Below, one piece after another: positions 1,933-64,000 of a DNA stretch of 64,000 nt. Within the stretch, counting starts at the first letter, position 1, and each line of letters starts with the position of its first letter. This DNA is from Bilabrum cf. latius. Its lineage: Eukaryota. A program made the translations under genes and the position numbers. The stretch spans positions 1,054,001 to 1,118,000 of the forward strand of contig OZ237739.1 in the NCBI GenBank assembly GCA_965178125.1, written 5' to 3'. Below the pieces are notes generated by a model, which made no database searches, was not told the DNA's origin, and worked only from the letters and a program-made list of their open reading frames with translations.

Positions 1933-3853
1933 TCACCACCCGAACCCGCTGCCGGCAGCCGTCGCTGCCACACCAGACACCCCCGTCGGCCGCGCTGCAT
2001 CCCCATACCCACCCCCAGCGACCCCGAAGCCCCCTCCAGCCGACCCCCCGGCACCACCCCCCGCCATGGACACCCGCACCGTAGCGGCCCCCATCTCGCC
2101 CACCTGGGCCCGGTCCTGATGACCCCCCGCGTGCGCGTCTCCGTAGAGCTTCTCCAGACACTGCCTCAAAGACTCGTCCGATCTGCCGTTGTACACGTAC
2201 TGCATCCTCAGCTTGGGGTCCTTCGTGGTCGCACAACGGATGTACTCATTGCCGGGCAGGTGCGTCTTGTGGTCGCACATGAAGCCGATGGCGGCGGGCC
2301 CCACGGCGGGCCTTCCCGCCTGCATGCACGCGAAGCACTCCACCTTGAGGTGCTTGAGGTCCATCCAGCCCGTCCTGGCCTCGTCAAAGCCAGAGCCCGC
2401 TACGTACATGCACTGCTCCGCCTGCGCCAGACCGGCAGCCGACCCGCCCGAGCTGGCCAGGCAGCTCGCGCACAGTGGTCTGTGCACGAAGCTGGTGCCC
2501 GCCGCGTGGCATGTGCTGCAGTTGCCTGTAGCGAAGCCGCCGATGGCACCCTCGGGCGGGGGCCACACTTTGCCCATGACCAGATGCACGCATGACCCGC
2601 TCGACATGCCCAGGGACCGGATGACGGTGGCATCATCCTGAGTCCTACCCCGGTACAGGATCTTCTGCCTCCAGGCAGGCATGCCCTGCGATCTCTCCAT
2701 GGCGACCTTGAGGTCCCCGATGGTGTTGTCGAGATGCACGTGCACTGTGACGGAGGCGCCGCTGAGCAGCTTGACCACGATGGACAGCATACCCGGCCCG
2801 GCCGGCCCAAGGCCTGCACCAGCACCTGCATGCCCTGCACCTGCGCCAGCCCCGAGACCGCCACTGGATGCGCCAGCTGCTGGCGCGGGTGCCGGTGCTG
2901 GCGCGGGTGCGGGTGCTGGAGCAGATGCTGGCGCAGGTGCTGGCGCTGGTGCTGGTGCGGACGTTGCAGAGTACCCGAATGCAGTGTTTGAACCGCCCAC
3001 GGTGCCGTACCCGCCAGCTCCATAGCCCCCCCCGTAGCCCACCCCGCTGCCCCCGGAGCTCCAGCCATCACCCGCCTACGCGTGCGTTCCTGCGGCGGGC
3101 GGTGCCGGCGCCGGCGAAGAAGACTTCGGTGGAGCTGTTGCCCCGTAGGTTGGCGAACTCAAAGATGGCGGACCAGATGGCGCCGAGCCGCCGTAGCCAC
3201 TGGCAGTGGCTGGCGGACCAGACGGCGCTGCTCCGCGCGAGGCGCCGCCAGTCGCGGCTGAATGCCCCGAGGCAGCCCCGAAACCAGAAGCAGAGCTACT
3301 GCCTGTAGCAGGCGTCGAGTCAGGTGCAGCGCCGCCAGTAGCAGGTGCAGCAGACGTCATCTGCGAGAACGACGGCCCGTCCTCGCCTATCTTGTCCCAG
3401 GCAGGCACAGCTCCAGAGCCGGAGTACAAGGGCTTGCCGTCACCAGCGATAGCCATGAGCGAGGAGCCCCGATGGATGCCGAGCTCTTTAAGCTTAGCCG
3501 AATCGCCGAGCTCTTTGCTGGCGAATATGAGCTTGATGTTGACATCTCTGCCGATTGCTCGCTGCGGTGTTGGGTGGAGCTACTAAATGGAGAACCCAGT
3601 GTGAGAACACGCACCTCAGCCATAAGCTTTCTTTCTTCAATAGCAGAGCCACCGCATAGACCCTGTCGTTCGCGTGAGGCTTCAGGCGGGCATGAAGTCT
3701 CCCGGTCAAACATCTTGTACCACCTGGCAAGAACGCCGCCTTGCTCACCTGTATTGCCCTTTTCAAGCCACCCGCGGTCCCATCCTCAAAATACTCGAAT
3801 GTGAATGGACTGCCACCGATGCTTTTCACCACAAGATGAGAGGTCGATGCCAT
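1933..3853 (-). CDS. Double ubiquitin-like domain protein with C-terminal Cys-rich (Parkin RING0-like) domain, copy A, ~584 aa
   Basis: Exon 1 3853-3749 (MASTSHLVVKSIGG..), intron 3748-3583, exon 2 with IKLIFASKELGDSAKLKELGI (UBL1), TAG at 3078-3076, UBL2 (IVVKLLSG..QKILYRGRTQDD..VHLV), then CxxC..CxxC..W..CxxC..CxH; ends TGA. Confidence 0.8.
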
Positions 3854-4123: not shown

Positions 4124-6040
4124 TCACCTCCCAAACCCGCTGCCGGCAGCCGTCGCTGCCACACCCGACACCCCCGTCGGCCGCGCTGCACCCCCATGCC
4201 CACCCCCAGCGACCCCGAAGCCCCCTCCAGCCGACCCCCCGGCACCACCCCCTGCCATGGACACCCGCACCGTAGCGGCCCCCATCTCGCCCACCTGGGC
4301 CCGGTCCTGATGACCCCCCGCGTGCGCGTCCCCGTAGAGCTTCTCCAGACACTGCCTCAAAGACTCGTCCGATCTGCCGTCGTACACGTACTGCATCCTC
4401 AGCTTGGGGTCCTTCGTGGTCGCACAACGGATATACTCATTGCCGGGCAGGTGCGTCTTGTGGTCGCACATGAAGCCGATGGCGGCGGGCCCCACGGCGG
4501 GCCTTCCCGCCTGCATGCACGCGAAGCACTCCACCTTGAGGTGCTTGAGGTCCATCCAGCCCGTCCTGGCCTCGTCAAAGCCAGAGCCCGCTACGTACAT
4601 GCACTGCTCCGCCTGTGCCAGACCGGCGGCCGACCCGCCCGAGCTGGCCAGGCAGCTCGCACACAGTGGTCTGTGTACGAAGCTGGTGCCCGCCGCGTGG
4701 CATGTGCTGCAGTTGCCTGTAGCGAAGCCGCCGATGGCACCCTCGGGCGGGGGCCACACTTTGCCCATGACCAGATGCACGCATGACCCGCTCGACATGC
4801 CCAGGGACCGAATGACGGTGGCATCATCCTGAGTCCTGCCCCGGTACAGGATCTTCTGCCTCCAGGCAGGCATGCCCTGCGATCTCTCCATGGCGACCTT
4901 GAGGTCCCCGATGGTGTTGTCGAGATGCACGTGCACTGTGACGGAGGCGCCGCTGAGCAGCTTGACCACAATGGACAGCATACCCGGCCCGGCCGGCCCA
5001 AGGCCTGCACCAGCACCTGCATGCCCTGCACCTGCGCCAGCCCCAAGACCGCCACTGGATGCGCCAGCTGCTGGCGCGGGTGCCGGTGCTGGCGCGGGTG
5101 CGGGTGCTGGCGCAGGTGCTGGCGCAGGTGCTGGCGCTGGTGCAGGTGCTGGTGCGGACGTTGCAGAGTACCCGAATGCAGTGTTTGAACCGCCCACGGT
5201 GCCGTACCCGCCAGCTCCATAGCCCCCCCCGTAGCCCACCCCGCTGCCCCCGGAGCTCCAGCCATCACCCGCCTACGCGTGCGTTCCTGCGGCGGGCGGT
5301 GCCGGCGCCGGCGAAGAAGACTTCGGTGGAGCTGTTGCCCCGTAGGTTGGCGAACTCAAAGATGGCGGACCAGATGGCGCCGAGCCGCCGTAGCCACTGG
5401 CAGTGGCTGGCGGACCAGACGGCGCTGCTCCGCGCGAGGCGCCGCCAGTCGCGGCTGAATGCCCCGAGGCAGCCCCGAAACCAGAAGCAGAGCTACTGCC
5501 TGTAGCAGGCGTCGAGTCAGGTGCAGCGCCGCCAGTAGCAGGTGCAGCAGACGTCATCTGCGAGAACGACGGCCCGTCCTCGCCTATCTTGTCCCAGGCA
5601 GGCACAGCTCCAGAGCCGGAGTACAAGGGCTTGCCGTCACCAGCGATAGCCATGAGCGAGGAGCCCCGATGGATGCCGAGCTCTTTAAGCTTGGCCGAAT
5701 CGCCGAGCTCTTTGCTGGCGAATATGAGCTTGACATTTGCGTCCCTGCCGATTGCTCGCTGCGGTGTTGGGTGGAGCTACTAAATGGAGAACCCAGTGTG
5801 AGAACACGCACCTCAGCCATAAGCTTTCTTTCTTCAATAGCAGAGCCACCGCATAGATCCTGTCGTTCGCGTGAGGCTTCAGGCGGGCATGAAGTCTCTC
5901 GGTCAAATACCTCGCAAGAACGTCGCCTTGCTCACCTGTATTGCCCTTTTCAAGCCACCCGCGGTCCCATCAACAAGGTACTCGAATGTGAATGGACTTC
6001 CACCGATGCTTTTCACCACAAGATGAGAGGTCGATGCCAT
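4124..6040 (-). CDS. Double ubiquitin-like domain protein, copy B
   Basis: Near-identical to copy A; exon 1 6040-5936, intron 5935-5780, TAG at 5275-5273, ends TGA. Confidence 0.8.
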
Positions 6041-6155: not shown

Positions 6156-6237
6156 GACAGCATGCCAGAGTGGTTATTGGGATTGACTCGAAATCAATTG
6201 GGCTTCGCCCGCGCAGGTTCGAATCCTGCTGCTGTCG
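6156..6237 (+). tRNA. tRNA-Ser(CGA)
   Basis: Acceptor GACAGCA/TGCTGTC with discriminator G; anticodon stem ATTGA/TCAAT with CGA at 6189-6191; long variable arm GGGCTTCGCCC; T-loop GTTCGAATC; followed by T5 Pol III terminator at 6239-6243. Confidence 0.95.
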
Positions 6238-6380
6238 CTTTTTAGCCTTCTGCCCCCCAACCCCTTCGGCACTCATTTATGCCGATCCGTCGATCCAATA
6301 TGATCCAGGGGTGTATTCTTGCGAAGTTTGAGTCGATCAGTAGTAACTTTTGAACTAGTCGAAGCTTGTGGGTGTGAATT

Positions 6381-56542: not shown

Positions 56543-58708
56543 ATGCCACGTCGATCAGGGAGCACCCAGCCACATGAAGATGATATGAGTCGATCGTAGG
56601 CGAAAAATCTAGTACAGGGACTGCGAGACGCCGAGGATGTCCCAGTTCCAGATTCAGATGAGAGGCGTGGCCCCAGCCTGCCATCAACAGTCACAAAGAG
56701 CGGTTCCAAAGGTATCTCGTCGTTAGGAAGTAAGCAGATGAGTTTAGGCACCTCTGGTGCTTCATTGTCCAGTTCATCGACTGCTGTCGCTTCGGGGCAA
56801 CCTAATCCGGAAGCAACACGTGATGATCGTATCAGTGATGAAGACCCATTGCAGGGAATATTTGGTGAAGTCGAAAGGCGTAACAGGGACTTCGAACGGA
56901 TGCGCTAGGAGCGCCGCCGGTAGCTGCTCGGGTCGGCGGCTCGAAGCGGGCATGGACCACCTGGTCCAGTTCCGTAGGCAACTGCTGCGGGGTCTAGCGC
57001 TTCCGAGGAGATACAAGGACCAGCCCAAGACGGTACAAATAGCGTATCTGACCAGTCTGGCTCGGACGACGAGTTCGACATGTTCTCAGCGGACGACGAG
57101 GACGTAGCCAGGGAAGCCAAAGAAGCGGCGGAGGCAGCTGCCGCGGCGAAGGCGGCCGGGGGCGAGCAGAAGCAAGGGCTCCGAGTCGACGAGCTCAGCG
57201 ACGCCGAGGGGTACCTCGTGGCCCGGGTGGGTACGCTGCTGGGAAGCGACAGTAGGTACGAGGTACAGGGCGAGCTGGGGCGGGGCGTGTTCTCGTCTGT
57301 GTTTATGTGCATCGACAGGCAGTCCGCTGCAGAGCTGGGTATCGGTGGGGGTGGGGATGCAGGGGAGCTGCCCAATGCGGCGGATGGCTCTTCTGTGCCC
57401 CCAATAGTGCCCAAACCAGACGGCATGGGACTTGGACTTGGATCTGCATCGGGGACAGGCGTCGCCGGTGGAGCCTAGGCATCCACAGAGGCCGTCGAGG
57501 CCGGGGGGCCTTCCGCCGCCCCCGCCGGCACCCAGGACTGGAACGGATTCATCGAGAGGTGGGGCCCCGCCGCTGTTGCCGTCAAGGTGTTGCGAGACAA
57601 TGACAGGATGCGGCTGGAGGGCCAGCGGGAGCTGGCGGCTCTCAAAACCGTCAAGGAAGCGGACAGGAAAGACAGGCACTTCTTGGTGCGGCTGCGCGAG
57701 TCCTTCAAGCACGGTCAGCACCTATGTATCTGTTTTGAAGCGATGGGAGGATCGTTGAAGGAGGCCTAGGACAAGTTCGGCAGGACGGTGGGCATCGCGC
57801 TGGACGCGGTAAGGCAGTACGCCGTGCACCTGTTCAGGGCGCTGGCGCTGCTACACAAGGTGGGCTTCGTGCACGCAGATCTGAAGCCCCAGAACGTCCT
57901 GGTCGCGGCGGACTACTCGCACTGCAGGCTCGGTGACTTGGGGTCTGCCTTTCGGGTGGAGGCGGCGGAGCCCACGGCCTACCTGGTTACTCCCTACTAC
58001 CGTGCCCCCGAGATCATGCTGGGCCTGCCGCACACCACTGCCATAGACGTGTGGTCCTTGGGTTGCGTGCTGTTCGAGGCGTTTACGGGAGAGCTGGCGT
58101 TCACTGGGCGGGACAACAATGAGATGCTCCTCCGCTTCCAGCAGGCGCTGGGACCATTTCCGCTCCGGATCGCCCGGAGCCACGTGCTGGCGTGCCGCAG
58201 GGCCGCCGATGCCGCCCTGGAGGCGGGGGCCGTGCCAGTGAGCGATGCAGACCCCAGCGACGTGTCTGCTGGGACGGTGCAGGTGGTGGGCGACATGGCT
58301 TCTGGTTTGTCCACCGGTGGACTCAAGTGCCATTTCTCCGAAGACGGGTCCCATTTCTTGCACCGCGACACGGACCCGGCCTCCATGCGCGCGTGCGTGC
58401 GCAGCCTAAGGCTGGTCAGGCCAGTGCCCGAAGAAACGATACAGAGGCGGGTGCAGCGCAAGGCAGGCCCTCGGGACTCGCGCGCCAGCGTGCAGCAGCT
58501 CGTGGATCTGCTGCTGCGATGCTTCACTCTCGATCCGAGGAGGCGCATCACGGCTGCAGAGGCTCTCCAGCACCCCTTCTTGCACCCGCCCGTGGCAGTG
58601 CCCGAAGGGGGCGAGCTGGTGGACCGAGATGGGGGGCAGGCCGATGGCAGTTATCAAGAGGGTGGTGCTGGTGCCCACGTCGGCGGCGGCAGCAGCTTGC
58701 GAGGGTGA
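56543..58708 (+). CDS. PRP4K: PRP4-like CMGC serine/threonine kinase; start uncertain
   Basis: DDEFDMF, DAEGY, GRGVFSSV, AVKVLRDND, HLCICFE, HADLKPQN, YLVTPYYRAPEIMLG; six TAGs (56597, 56906, 56921, 56975, 57476, 57767); ends TGA. Confidence 0.88.
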
Positions 58709-60013: not shown

Positions 60014-62415
60014 ATGCAAGGTAGATCTAAAGCAGGTAGAAAGAGAAGTAGAAGCTAGATTTCTGCATCTAGAACCGATGGCGAGGGAGCAGGTGGAAAG
60101 TTACACTCATCCGGGGGCAACGCGCCGCGGGATGAGGGTCTTGCAGATGAGAGTGTGGCCAAGTACTACCGTAGCGCTGCGGGTGAAGACCACAAGGGGC
60201 GTATGCCTGCCTCTGATCCACGACTAGGTAGCAAAAAGAACATAGCGAATGCTGCGAGAGATAAGAAGGTCAGACAGCGGGTTAAAAAGGAAATGGAGCG
60301 GGCGCGACGAGCTGCAGTTGCAGCTGCGCGTGCAGAAGTGCTGTTGGAGCATGAGGCGGGGTGAGGAGTCGTTTGTAGGTATATCTATTGCCGATCACCC
60401 CATTCCTGTAGTTTGCAGCCACAACGTACGGAAACGTCCGCCCTACTCAACGCTCTTGATCAACAATCCATCTTGTCAATTGTCGCAGTGGCGTGGAAAT
60501 GGATGAGGAGGAGACTCCGTTTTCGTCAAAGACGTACAAGGCCACCCAGGAAGCAATCGCATCGTCAGAAGGGGTCGGAAAGGCGTACGCTAAGAAGCTA
60601 GCGTTCAACCTCCACCTGCCCACCTACGGGCCATACAAGGTCAACTGGTCCAGGAATGGCCGGTACGCCCTCCTGTGCGGACAGAAGGGCCATCTGTCCG
60701 TCTTGGACGCGCAGGTACCCGCCATTCGGAGCGAGACTCACCTGGAGGAGCACTGCAGGGATGCGTGCTTCCTGCACGACGCTACCTTTTTCGCCGTTGC
60801 TTAGAGGCGATACACGCACATCTACGACGGGTCCGGCGCGGAGGTGCACGTGATGAGAGACCACAAGAGGCCGCTCGCGCTTGATTTTCTGCCGCACCAC
60901 TTCCTCCTCGCGACTGTCGGCGAGGATGGGTTCCTCCGGTACAGGGACACGTCCACTGGCGCACTCGTGGCATCCATCCGCACGGGGCTGGGGCCGTGCC
61001 ACGTGCTGCGGCAGGACCCCTGGACGGGAGTGGTTGGTCTGGGGCACCGTGACGGCGGTGTCACTCTCAGGACGCCCTCCATGACTAGGCCTCTCATGCG
61101 GATTGCTGCGCACAGGGGGCCGGTAACCGCCGTTGCCTTCGACGGGCCGGGCAGGCTCATGGTGACGGCAGGGAGCGATTCCAGGGTGCGCGTCTGGGAC
61201 CTGCGCAAGACCGCGGAGAACGTTGTGGATTACTTCACCCCGGGTGCCGCTGGCAGCCTGGACGTGTCGCAGAGGGGCCACCTGGCCGTGGTGGCGGGCA
61301 GGAACGTGCAAGTGTGGGGGGAGGGCTGCATGCGAGAGAAGCACAAGGCGCCTTTCTTGAGGCACACGCTGGATGCGGGGCCCGGAGTGGTGGGTGCCGG
61401 GCCCGTGCGGGCGGAGAGCGCTAGGTTCAGGCCGTTTGAGGACGCCCTGCTGGTGGGACACAACTTTGGGGTCAGGGGGCTACTGGCACCAGGGTCGGGC
61501 GAGCCGAACTACGACGCGCTGGAGTCGAATCCCTACGAGAACAATCGTTCCAGGAGAGAGCGCGAGGTCCGTAGTCTGATGGACAAGATTCCTGCCGAGC
61601 TGATTTCCCTTGACACCGATGCGATCACCAAGGTCAGGCCAGGTGCTTCGACAGCATCTTCGTCCAGTAGCAGCAGCAGCAGCAGCAGCAGCAGCTCGGC
61701 ATCGGCATCGGCTTCCGGTGGCTCCACTGGGGGTGGTGGCAGTGGAAAAGCGCTGCGGATGGATTGGCTAGCAGGCGGTGCCGAGGCAAGCAGTGGCAAG
61801 AAATCTGGGTCCTCGAGCTCAGGAGCGCTGGACGTTGGAAACGACGGCGCCGACACGGGCGGCAGGCGGGCTGCGGACGAAAGTGACACGGATAGCAGCA
61901 GCGATGATGACGAAAGCGATGGCGAGGATGAGAAAGAGATCGTGGCTTCAAAGGGCAAGGGCAAGGGCGCGGCTGCATCCGGCGCGGGTGCCGGCGATGA
62001 CGACGAGGACGAGGATGACCCGTTAGAAGGCCTCTCAGGTGCCGAGAGGCGGAAGGCAAGGTAGAAGCTTCGGAAGAGGGCCAGAAAGAAGCAGCGTGGT
62101 CGCAGCAAGACCTCTCGTCTCGCTGCCAAGAGGCAGGGCAATATCTGGGATGAAAACAAAGCCAAGCTCAGGCAGGAGAGGCAGCGGAAGGAAGCCGAGA
62201 AGAAAGCCAGGGATGAAGCCAAGGCAGCATCCATCGAGAAAGCCAGGGCGAAAATCAAGGCGCAGCGGGATGCAGCGGTGGCAGCAGCTGGTGGGAGCGA
62301 GGCCATGGGCCCGTCTTCGACAAAAGCAACTGCTCGGATGGTGGATACGAGCACTGCATTGGCTCGTTTTGCCAAGGAAAAGCAGCCCGTGTACCTTGGT
62401 AGGCAAGGGAAATAA
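60014..62415 (+). CDS. UTP7: U3 snoRNP WD40 protein Utp7/WDR46; join(60014..60360,60489..62415)
   Basis: YGPYKVNWSRNGR, FAVA*RRYTHIYD, FLPHHFLLAT, PGSGEPNYDALESNPYE, REREVRSLMDKIP; TAG at 60056, 60802, 62062; ends TAA. Confidence 0.92.
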
Positions 62416-62475
62416 ATAATTACCACGAACTTCTATGTATTTCCACCTGTTCATCCTGTGCACCGCCAGCAAGGA

Positions 62476-64000
62476 TCACTCGCGACCACCCAACTGCCGC
62501 TCTTCGCTAGCATCGTCCTGCGAAGTTGCCTGGCCAGCCACAACTTCATGGCACCGCTGGCAAATCGGTACCAGGGAATCCGCCCCTTCCGCTTGCGCTT
62601 GGCTGTCGTCGGACAGGGGCACAACGGTTGGCTCGTACCGCCAGCATCGACCGCATCGGTGACCGTCTGCCGAGGCCAGCTGCACCGATATCTGCACGCT
62701 ACCGAGCGCACCCTATCTCTTGGAAACAGTCTTGAATGATGCGTCAAGGTGTAGCTCAGACAAGGGGTCCGCTGTTGCCGGATCCTTTCCGTCGCCCAGC
62801 AGCAGCTCCTGCTCATCCACAATTCTCACTGTCAAATCCAGCGGATGGTCCATGCGGCCCCCCAAGGAACCCGGCCCTGCCACAGACGCAGACTCCGCCA
62901 TGGTTTGCAATGCACCATCGATCTCAGCCGCATCCCCAACGCAAGCCACCTTCACGCCCGACACCTTGAGTGCATCAGACAGGTCGCATCTCCCTCGAGC
63001 CGAGAAGCTCAAGCTACCACTGGTGGCCCCCTGCTCCTAGCCGGCAAACCACGCCAAATATGCCGCCACCGCCGGCGCATCGGTCCCCGAAACGACAATC
63101 CTGGCATCAACCTCTTCGTCCGAGCCCACAAGACCATCGGTCCTGGCCCTCGCACGGAGGCTGTCCACGAGGCCACGCACAGCTCGTACAGCCTCATGCG
63201 CATCCTCGAGGAGCATGCAGCCGTCATTCGGCACACCTAGGGCAGCCGCAAGGGCTGGCACCTCGTGCGGCATCAGAGCTTCCCACCACCCGGGAAAGTC
63301 TGCGTGCGACCAGGACGAATCCATGCTGCTGATGCCGCTGACAAGAGGATCCGCCAGCAGATCCCTGCCCTTGCCGGTTCCAGTGCCTCCTGCGGCAGCA
63401 TCCACAATCTCGATCGAGTGCTGGAATATATCCTCTGCCGTGTAAGGTGCCACCGGTGCCAGGCTGGTGACCATGCCGCGCAAGCTGGCCCACAGCACGG
63501 CTCGGCAGCTCCGGCTCCTGGGATGCTCGAGCGGATCCGCATACAGACGGTCTTTGCACGCGTCCAGATAGCCAGCAGACATGTCTTGCGCCGCAAACTC
63601 GCCGAGCGCGGTGACGGCTCCCTTTGTCCCCAGGCCACCGTACGCAAGCCTTGCCTGATGCGTCATGCGACGCAGCGATGCAAGAGCCACTCTGTCGAGA
63701 GGGGTGTAGGCGGACAGTCCAGAGGGGCCGCCAGATGCGGGTGCGGGAGGCTGCGTCCAACTAGCGATAGCTGCAGCCTCGAGATCACCAGAAGCATCGT
63801 TTGCTACGCCCAGCTCTGCCGCGGTGCTTCCTTCGAGTGCTCCCAGGATAAACCGAGCGGTATTGCGCAACCTCCTCAGCTGCTCGAACGACTGCGCCAC
63901 GGAATCCTGCGAGATGGCCACGTCCGATTTCCAATCACTGCTAGCCACCCACATGCGCGCCACGTCCACTCCGTACGCTGGCGAGCCTTTGGCGCCGCCC
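62476..64000 (-). CDS. IARS2: Isoleucyl-tRNA synthetase, organellar/bacterial type, C-terminal part
   Basis: YGVDVARMWVASSD, RLRNTARFILG, YLDACKDRLY, LAPVAPYTAEDIF, C-terminal Zn finger CGRCWRY..ICQRC reached through TAG at 63039-63037 and 62715-62713; ends TGA. Confidence 0.88.

Follow-up and report, generated by a model that had tools for sequence, protein, structure and literature searches.

Glutamine at UAG, with UGA and UAA kept as stops, in the nuclear code of a bicosoecid stramenopile

The window, a stretch of 64,000 nucleotides of DNA, contains a gene whose reading frame is crossed by TAG triplets, which raises the question of whether TAG is a sense codon there and, if so, for which residue and by which machinery. 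An earlier note had read positions 60781-60830 as ATFFAVA-TAG-RRYTHIYD and placed the TAG at the conserved Gln of the AVAQ motif of Utp7/WDR46; this reading was confirmed, and the triplet lies in frame of that gene. WD40 repeats and a BING4CT domain (PF08149, 94.5 bits in Pfam) identify the gene as a member of the Utp7/WDR46 family. The frame stays open upstream of the ATG taken as its start, and the spliced contigs begin at 60020 and 60054. Exon 2 encodes, in order, the WD40 propeller, the BING4CT domain (approximately 61411-61614), a low-complexity tail and the stop codon, a TAA at 62413-62415. The coordinates are collected in Table 1.

Table 1. Positions of the features discussed (window coordinates, except for the tRNA gene)
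Feature	Position	Strand	Evidence
Protein-kinase gene exon beside Utp7/WDR46, ending with TGA at 58706-58708	56856..58708	+	Domain match, X5 contig
Utp7/WDR46 coding exon 1	60203..60360	+	Start inferred as first in-frame ATG, 60203
Utp7/WDR46 intron, 128 nt, GT..AG	60361..60488	+	Joint in X5 and X6 contigs
Utp7/WDR46 exon 2	60489..62415	+	Pfam, homologs; one X5 contig ends at 62427
First in-frame TAG, Utp7/WDR46 (invariant AVAQ Gln)	60802..60804	+	Homolog column, X5/X6 contigs
Second in-frame TAG, Utp7/WDR46	62062..62064	+	Q in P0001; 0 differences in X5/X6 contigs
Nuclear tRNA with anticodon CUA, full cloverleaf	G000:C23:907607-907679	minus	Rfam search

For the alignment with the best 120 of 461 homologs, the TAG in the protein was written as X; the column of the first TAG is Q in 120/120 of them. 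The nearby columns L92, A99 and Y109 are likewise constant (120/120), and the yeast-type motif is present among the homologs, for example in Candida boidinii P0071. The query of the homolog search carried Q for TAG; because this is only one residue of 384, it does not explain the invariant column. The second TAG lies in a region that is gapped in 102/120 homologs, and the 90%-identical relative P0001 has Q at this site as well as at the first (at the protein level). The earlier description of the AVAQ column as the best single evidence for UAG as Gln held in part: the column is strong, yet it is one among many equally strong columns.

Contigs of two further runs, X5 and X6, have the intron spliced out and match 60488-61656 and 61724-62416 with 0 differing letters. 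The expectation that UAG itself stands in the mRNA was borne out by these spliced contigs, which keep TAG, not CAG, at 60802-60804. The nature of the runs was guessed by a tool, which labelled X5 'probably DNA'. That X5 and X6 are RNA is supported by their splice joints and by a poly-T end found at the gene next to Utp7/WDR46. The neighbouring protein-kinase exon has five in-frame TAGs, at 56906, 56921, 56975, 57476 and 57767, and an X5 contig covers 56855-58667 with 0 differences. Runs X8 and X12 contain DNA that is approximately 91-94% identical and spans TAG sites; a weak hint that close relatives may share the code is that no difference falls at TAG 57767 among the 40 of 489 differences listed. 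Elsewhere in the window, the minus strand carries near-identical tandem ORF duplicates at 1933-3615 and 4124-5812, with three in-frame TAGs each and what looks like a ubiquitin-like domain, and an open frame with two TAGs at 62476-64000, which we take to resemble the C-terminal part of isoleucyl-tRNA synthetase.

The meaning UAG=Gln was supported not only at the Utp7 column but genome-wide, in an assembly of 48.6 Mb in 111 contigs that is near chromosome-scale. Ten dynein heavy-chain genes, taken as 20 stretches of genome, have frames that remain open over thousands of codons only when TAG is a sense codon, and their 47,129 codons include 137 TAG, 1820 CAG and 214 CAA. With up to 40 of 120 homologs aligned per query, the columns conserved to at least 70% face Q at 24/45 TAG, 312/675 CAG and 34/73 CAA codons. 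For the 98 TAG columns that had sufficient rows, the summed log-odds were +33 for Gln and −102 for Lys, the next residue. Tyr is absent among the eight residues listed facing TAG at conserved dynein columns, and in the dynein columns 61/61 sense codons have their standard meaning. The readings of TAG as Tyr, Leu, Glu or Lys were rejected by the column log-odds.

Other gene families gave the same picture. The switch-II Gln of small GTPases is catalytic, and this residue of the DTAGQ motif is encoded by TAG in 8/30 loci (30 of 65 matches examined). Among Gln codons, TAG accounts for 2/117 in HSP70, 6/125 in chaperonins, 6/71 in proteasome subunits and 29/139 in GTPases. Its share mostly tracks that of CAA across gene classes and drops as GC3 increases, which fits a minor synonymous codon. 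By these counts, TAG behaves as an ordinary minor Gln codon, with a frequency approximately that of CAA and little use in high-GC3 genes. Many genes carry an in-frame UAG where Gln is conserved, as in NCBI translation table 15. A GlnRS-like gene (G000:C33:558064-561330, L182) has 0 TAG in the approximately 750 codons seen, and a GluRS-like gene (L183) has two.

Stop usage was sampled at the 49 gene ends that could be judged, 41 of which are TGA, 8 TAA and 0 TAG. Proteasome-family and chaperonin genes end at TGA in 23/23 cases (23 of 25, two that run into introns having been dropped), GTPase loci ending in a Cys prenylation motif have 16 TGA and 4 TAA (20 of 30 loci), HSP70 genes have 2 TGA and 1 TAA (3 of 7 loci), and eRF1, Utp7 and a NAC-beta-like neighbour all end at TAA. 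Family matches covering 13,812 codons contain 0 internal TAA and 1 internal TGA, the latter in a probable intron. UAA and UGA therefore remain stops, and the absence of UAG as a terminator (0/49) corresponds to table 15. Dual use of UAG, inside genes and at true ends, was not seen at these 49 ends, one chaperonin end being ambiguous: there, a TAG six codons ahead of the TGA is read as Gln, and the true end may lie at it. Table 6, in which both UAA and UAG are Gln, was rejected, as genes for eRF1, Utp7, HSP70 and GTPases terminate at TAA and the anticodon pattern search yielded no UUA tRNA. At the proteasome and chaperonin loci (L097-L130), TGA is often followed by GC or GG, with TGAGC at 12/25 listed ends, and this is possibly a termination context.

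The tRNA gene with anticodon CUA lies on a 999-kb contig, surrounded by nuclear genes, and provides the cognate tRNA of a table 15 code. The Rfam tRNA search scored 63 of 780 candidates and returned 48 matches. A pattern search of the genome for CUA, UUA, CUG and UUG anticodons, dependent on the D and T loops, found one CUA, two CUG and one nuclear UUG tRNA and none with UUA. From the codon columns, we infer that tRNA-CUA is charged with Gln. The 'Pyl' label given by ARAGORN derives from the CUA anticodon only, and the TAG columns are Gln.

The stems of tRNA-CUA were compared with those of 28 other distinct nuclear tRNAs (Phe, Trp, Leu, Asp and His lie outside this set), and the identical stem pairs numbered 14/21 for Tyr(GUA), 11/21 for Gln(CUG) and 10/21 for Gln(UUG); tRNA-CUA thus does not resemble a recent duplicate of either own tRNA-Gln. 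It shares 6/7 acceptor-stem and 4/5 anticodon-stem pairs with the organism's own tRNA-Tyr(GUA), and its D stem and G73 match the own Gln(UUG). In its D and anticodon arms it is also similar to canonical eukaryotic tRNA-Gln, and the tRNA-Gln genes of this genome may simply have diverged. In Table 1 of PMC9976931, as far as its text is accessible, C1-G72, A73 and G34 are given as determinants of eukaryotic TyrRS, and the table contains no tested eukaryotic Gln determinants; tRNA-CUA has C1-G72 and is without A73 and G34. The differences from the own tRNA-Tyr, namely G73, G2-C71, A37 and C34, are in the direction of the Gln identity set of E. coli given in the available portion of PMC1483225, where E. 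coli GlnRS is also reported to charge amber variants of yeast tRNA-Tyr slightly with Gln. A tRNA-Tyr origin with a Tyr-to-Gln identity switch would thus be a lead, and one that we hold to be rather doubtful. A metagenome scan with the acceptor/D-arm pattern of tRNA-CUA returned 14 loci, which are uninformative on its origin or spread because none has CUA or similar flanks.

Several further tRNA genes were recorded. A tRNA-Ser(CGA) gene in the window (6156-6238, plus strand) has a T arm identical to that of tRNA-CUA in all 5 pairs. A multi-copy family with a CAU anticodon (L022, L083, L087 and L094-L096, on contigs C5, C7, C3, C9 and C25) is like tRNA-Pro(UGG), found in an adjacent copy at L087, in acceptor stem, D stem and variable loop, and is unlike tRNA-Met L030; it may be another instance of tRNA remoulding, or else a repeat derived from a tRNA, and ATG still scores as Met. 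Two different nuclear tRNA-Ile(GAU) genes, L008 (C32) and L091 (C4), were found, with no AAU among the scored subset. Eukaryotic tRNA-Ile normally has AAU (inosine), and the tRNA-Ala and tRNA-Thr of this genome have A34.

The family search of the genome for release factors identified one eRF1 gene and one pelota-like gene. The eRF1 gene has four exons by GT-AG borders (splicing predicted), encodes 438 amino acids and ends at TAA. Two in-frame TAGs are located at human positions 44 and 69, so that full-length protein from the only eRF1 found requires UAG read-through. In the comparison with 118 homologs, from which two long fused matches were dropped, position 44 is Gln in 116/118 and position 69 is Leu in 117/118. 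The GTS (within exon 2), NIKS and YxCxxxF motifs are intact. Four N-domain substitutions, S60V, K130H, G29A and N30D, each occur in 0/118 homologs, G29A and N30D falling at the predicted exon 1-2 junction, and none of the homologs found is more than 77% identical.

One solved eRF1 structure, PDB 8ip8, which we take to be wheat eRF1 from a standard-code organism, has Gln69. In yeast eRF1, according to the accessible text of PMC4381064, L69A raised read-through slightly more at UAG, and N30A left termination unaffected, which weakens N30D as a cause. L69A is present in the eRF1 of the rhizarian exLh, in which UAG=Leu, and position 69 is described as not well conserved in the part of PMC5304391 available. 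Because of that description and of Gln69 in 8ip8, L69Q carries less weight as a convergent explanation for the loss of UAG recognition. Nonsense mutants of yeast eRF1 are on record (PMC2039749, available in part), and it is a speculation that the UAGs in eRF1 act as feedback on the release-factor level.

Dynein sequences also indicate the lineage. The best named dynein match is Cafeteria roenbergensis (65% identity), and in a tree of 31 sequences of this one gene family (2 own and 29 of 120 homologs, midpoint root), each of the two paralogs of this genome branches as sister to a Cafeteria clade, with support of 0.998 and 1.000. The 38.4-kb mitochondrial contig (G000:C111, L057-L060) has TGA inside 20/20 listed ORFs, all 20 of which end with TAA and none with TAG, and it carries tRNA-UCA. 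Mitochondrial UGA=Trp with tRNA-UCA is described for Cafeteria and Cafileria in the accessible sections of PMC6972860 and PMC6723347. The dynein trees and mitochondrial code 4 place the organism, on sequence evidence, as a bicosoecid stramenopile beside Cafeteria. Two Cafeteria dyneins, of 4656 and 4851 amino acids, run without interruption and contain 194 and 185 Gln, and the text available of the Cafeteria genome paper names a non-standard code for the mitochondrion only; the nuclear code of Cafeteria roenbergensis thus appears to be standard, which would place the change on the branch of the studied organism. ARAGORN found only 10 tRNA genes on the mitochondrial contig, so many tRNAs must be imported. 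A 17.9-kb contig carries a second SSU rRNA gene (G000:C95:6099-7900, L034), which is identical to the rDNA array of C12 in 1406/1810 columns. It looks dinoflagellate-like and probably derives from a contaminant or a co-cultured organism in the assembly.

We consider it highly probable that these data reflect a table 15 nuclear code, with UAG as Gln and UGA (the main stop) and UAA as terminators. Conservation shows the meaning of the codon, and the UAG in transcripts, the stop usage of the sample and the tRNA gene itself are likewise observed. The single nuclear tRNA-CUA would carry Gln and read UAG, not UAA, and eRF1, in which the N domain has several substitutions absent in 118 homologs, would have lost or weakened its recognition of UAG. 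The change is now locked in, as UAG must be read through in essential genes, Utp7 and the sole eRF1 found among them. A more far-reaching joint reading, which we put forward tentatively and regard as unlikely in its entirety, is that this is the first stramenopile nuclear code change and that it took a new eukaryotic route. An amber suppressor would have arisen from tRNA-Tyr by a change of G34 to C34; Gln identity would have followed through loss of the TyrRS determinant A73, with G73, G2-C71 and A37 gained along with a D arm of the Gln type; and UAGs within eRF1, one at the stop-recognition residue 69, would then have fixed the change, possibly with feedback on the release-factor level.

Three other explanations were weighed against the table 15 code. 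UAG might be ambiguous, being Gln inside genes and a stop near mRNA 3' ends as in Condylostoma, or subject to leaky competition between tRNA and eRF1. The retained GTS, NIKS and YxCxxxF motifs, the finding of only one tRNA-CUA gene, the rarity of TAG in HSP70 and the chaperonin TAG that could be a true end are compatible with this, but no gene end of the 49 is TAG, the small GTPase L173 needs read-through of a TAG 12 codons ahead of its Cys-motif end, and the TAG share tracks that of CAA over the gene classes, so that we judge ambiguity very improbable. Even less credible is UAG as Tyr or another residue, partly or wholly, through a tRNA-Tyr-derived tRNA-CUA that keeps C1-G72. The acceptor and anticodon stems are indeed largely those of the own tRNA-Tyr(GUA), but the mean log-odds for Tyr is −1.89 where the codon is TAG, no different from CAG (−1.94), against +1.42 for TAC, and the tRNA is without two of the TyrRS determinants in the accessible part of PMC9976931. 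For the Utp7 TAG, the likelihood of a sequencing error, of a pseudogene lesion or of editing to CAG in the mRNA is negligible. Nothing beyond the standard-code reading favours it, and error, an intron and editing are made unlikely by the spliced contigs of two further runs, which carry the same TAG with 0 differences; the 137 dynein TAGs and those of proteasome, chaperonin, GTPase and eRF1 genes likewise lie on Gln-like columns.

A nuclear table 15 code in this organism indicates that a change to UAG=Gln can occur in a GC-rich genome with UGA as the main stop. When the lineage is annotated under the standard code, many of its genes are cut short, and its proteins are therefore likely to be under-represented in databases. 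Giant viruses and virophages of bicosoecids may also be constrained by the altered codon. Only a few eukaryotic lineages are known to have codes in which UAG is split from UAA. As far as the accessible reports go, the decoding tRNA had gone undetected in the three earlier UAG=Gln cases, and it is present here. The tRNA, eRF1 and GlnRS, together with Cafeteria as a relative with an apparently standard code, make the origin of the tRNA, the eRF1 residues that tell UAG from UAA and the order of steps testable. No nuclear code variant of a stramenopile was found in the literature covered, which lay mostly outside subscription journals and included a stramenopile review, the P10K paper and a culturing guide, and the portion available of the Halocafeteria genome preprint mentions neither codon nor code.

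The known UAG=Gln systems differ from this one in several respects, as far as the available texts of the two main sources describe them. Iotanema spirale (Fornicata; Panek et al. 2017, PMC5304391), of a lineage unrelated to the studied organism, also has UAG=Gln with UAA still a stop. Its dominant stop is UAA, whereas UGA is dominant here (41/49); its eRF1 has T32G in GTS, a motif intact here; and its tRNA is only predicted, as a mutated copy of tRNA-Gln(CUG), whereas the tRNA found here is not close to the own Gln(CUG). McGowan et al. (2024, PMC11687900) list UAG=Gln cases together with Leu, Ser and Glu variants. Among them, the phyllopharyngeans Hartmannula sinica and Trochilia petrani use the same code (NCBI table 15), with 58-70% of UAGs on conserved Gln, compared with 53% at the conserved dynein columns here; they are ciliates with UAA as the main stop and no suppressor tRNA detected, in contrast to a GC-rich stramenopile with tRNA-CUA. 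In the rhizarian exLh (UAG=Leu) and Scotinosphaera (UAG=Ser), UAG is split from UAA as here with a different amino acid (PMC5304391, PMC11687900, both in part); exLh is also non-Leu at eRF1 position 69 (L69A), a residue that is itself TAG-encoded (Gln) here. Table 6 organisms (ciliates, hexamitids and ulvophytes) have in common with this one a tRNA-CUA for UAG=Gln, but UAA, Gln in their code, is a real stop here (8/49 ends, including eRF1 and Utp7). Cafeteria roenbergensis is sister in two dynein paralog trees and, in the accessible reports, has the same mitochondrial UGA=Trp with tRNA-UCA, yet it is only 65% identical in dynein and appears to keep the standard nuclear code, in contrast to UAG=Gln here. 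The type of code is thus known; its occurrence in a stramenopile is one for which we found no report, the decoding tRNA is in hand, and parts of the system are unlike the mechanism proposed, in the text available, for Iotanema.
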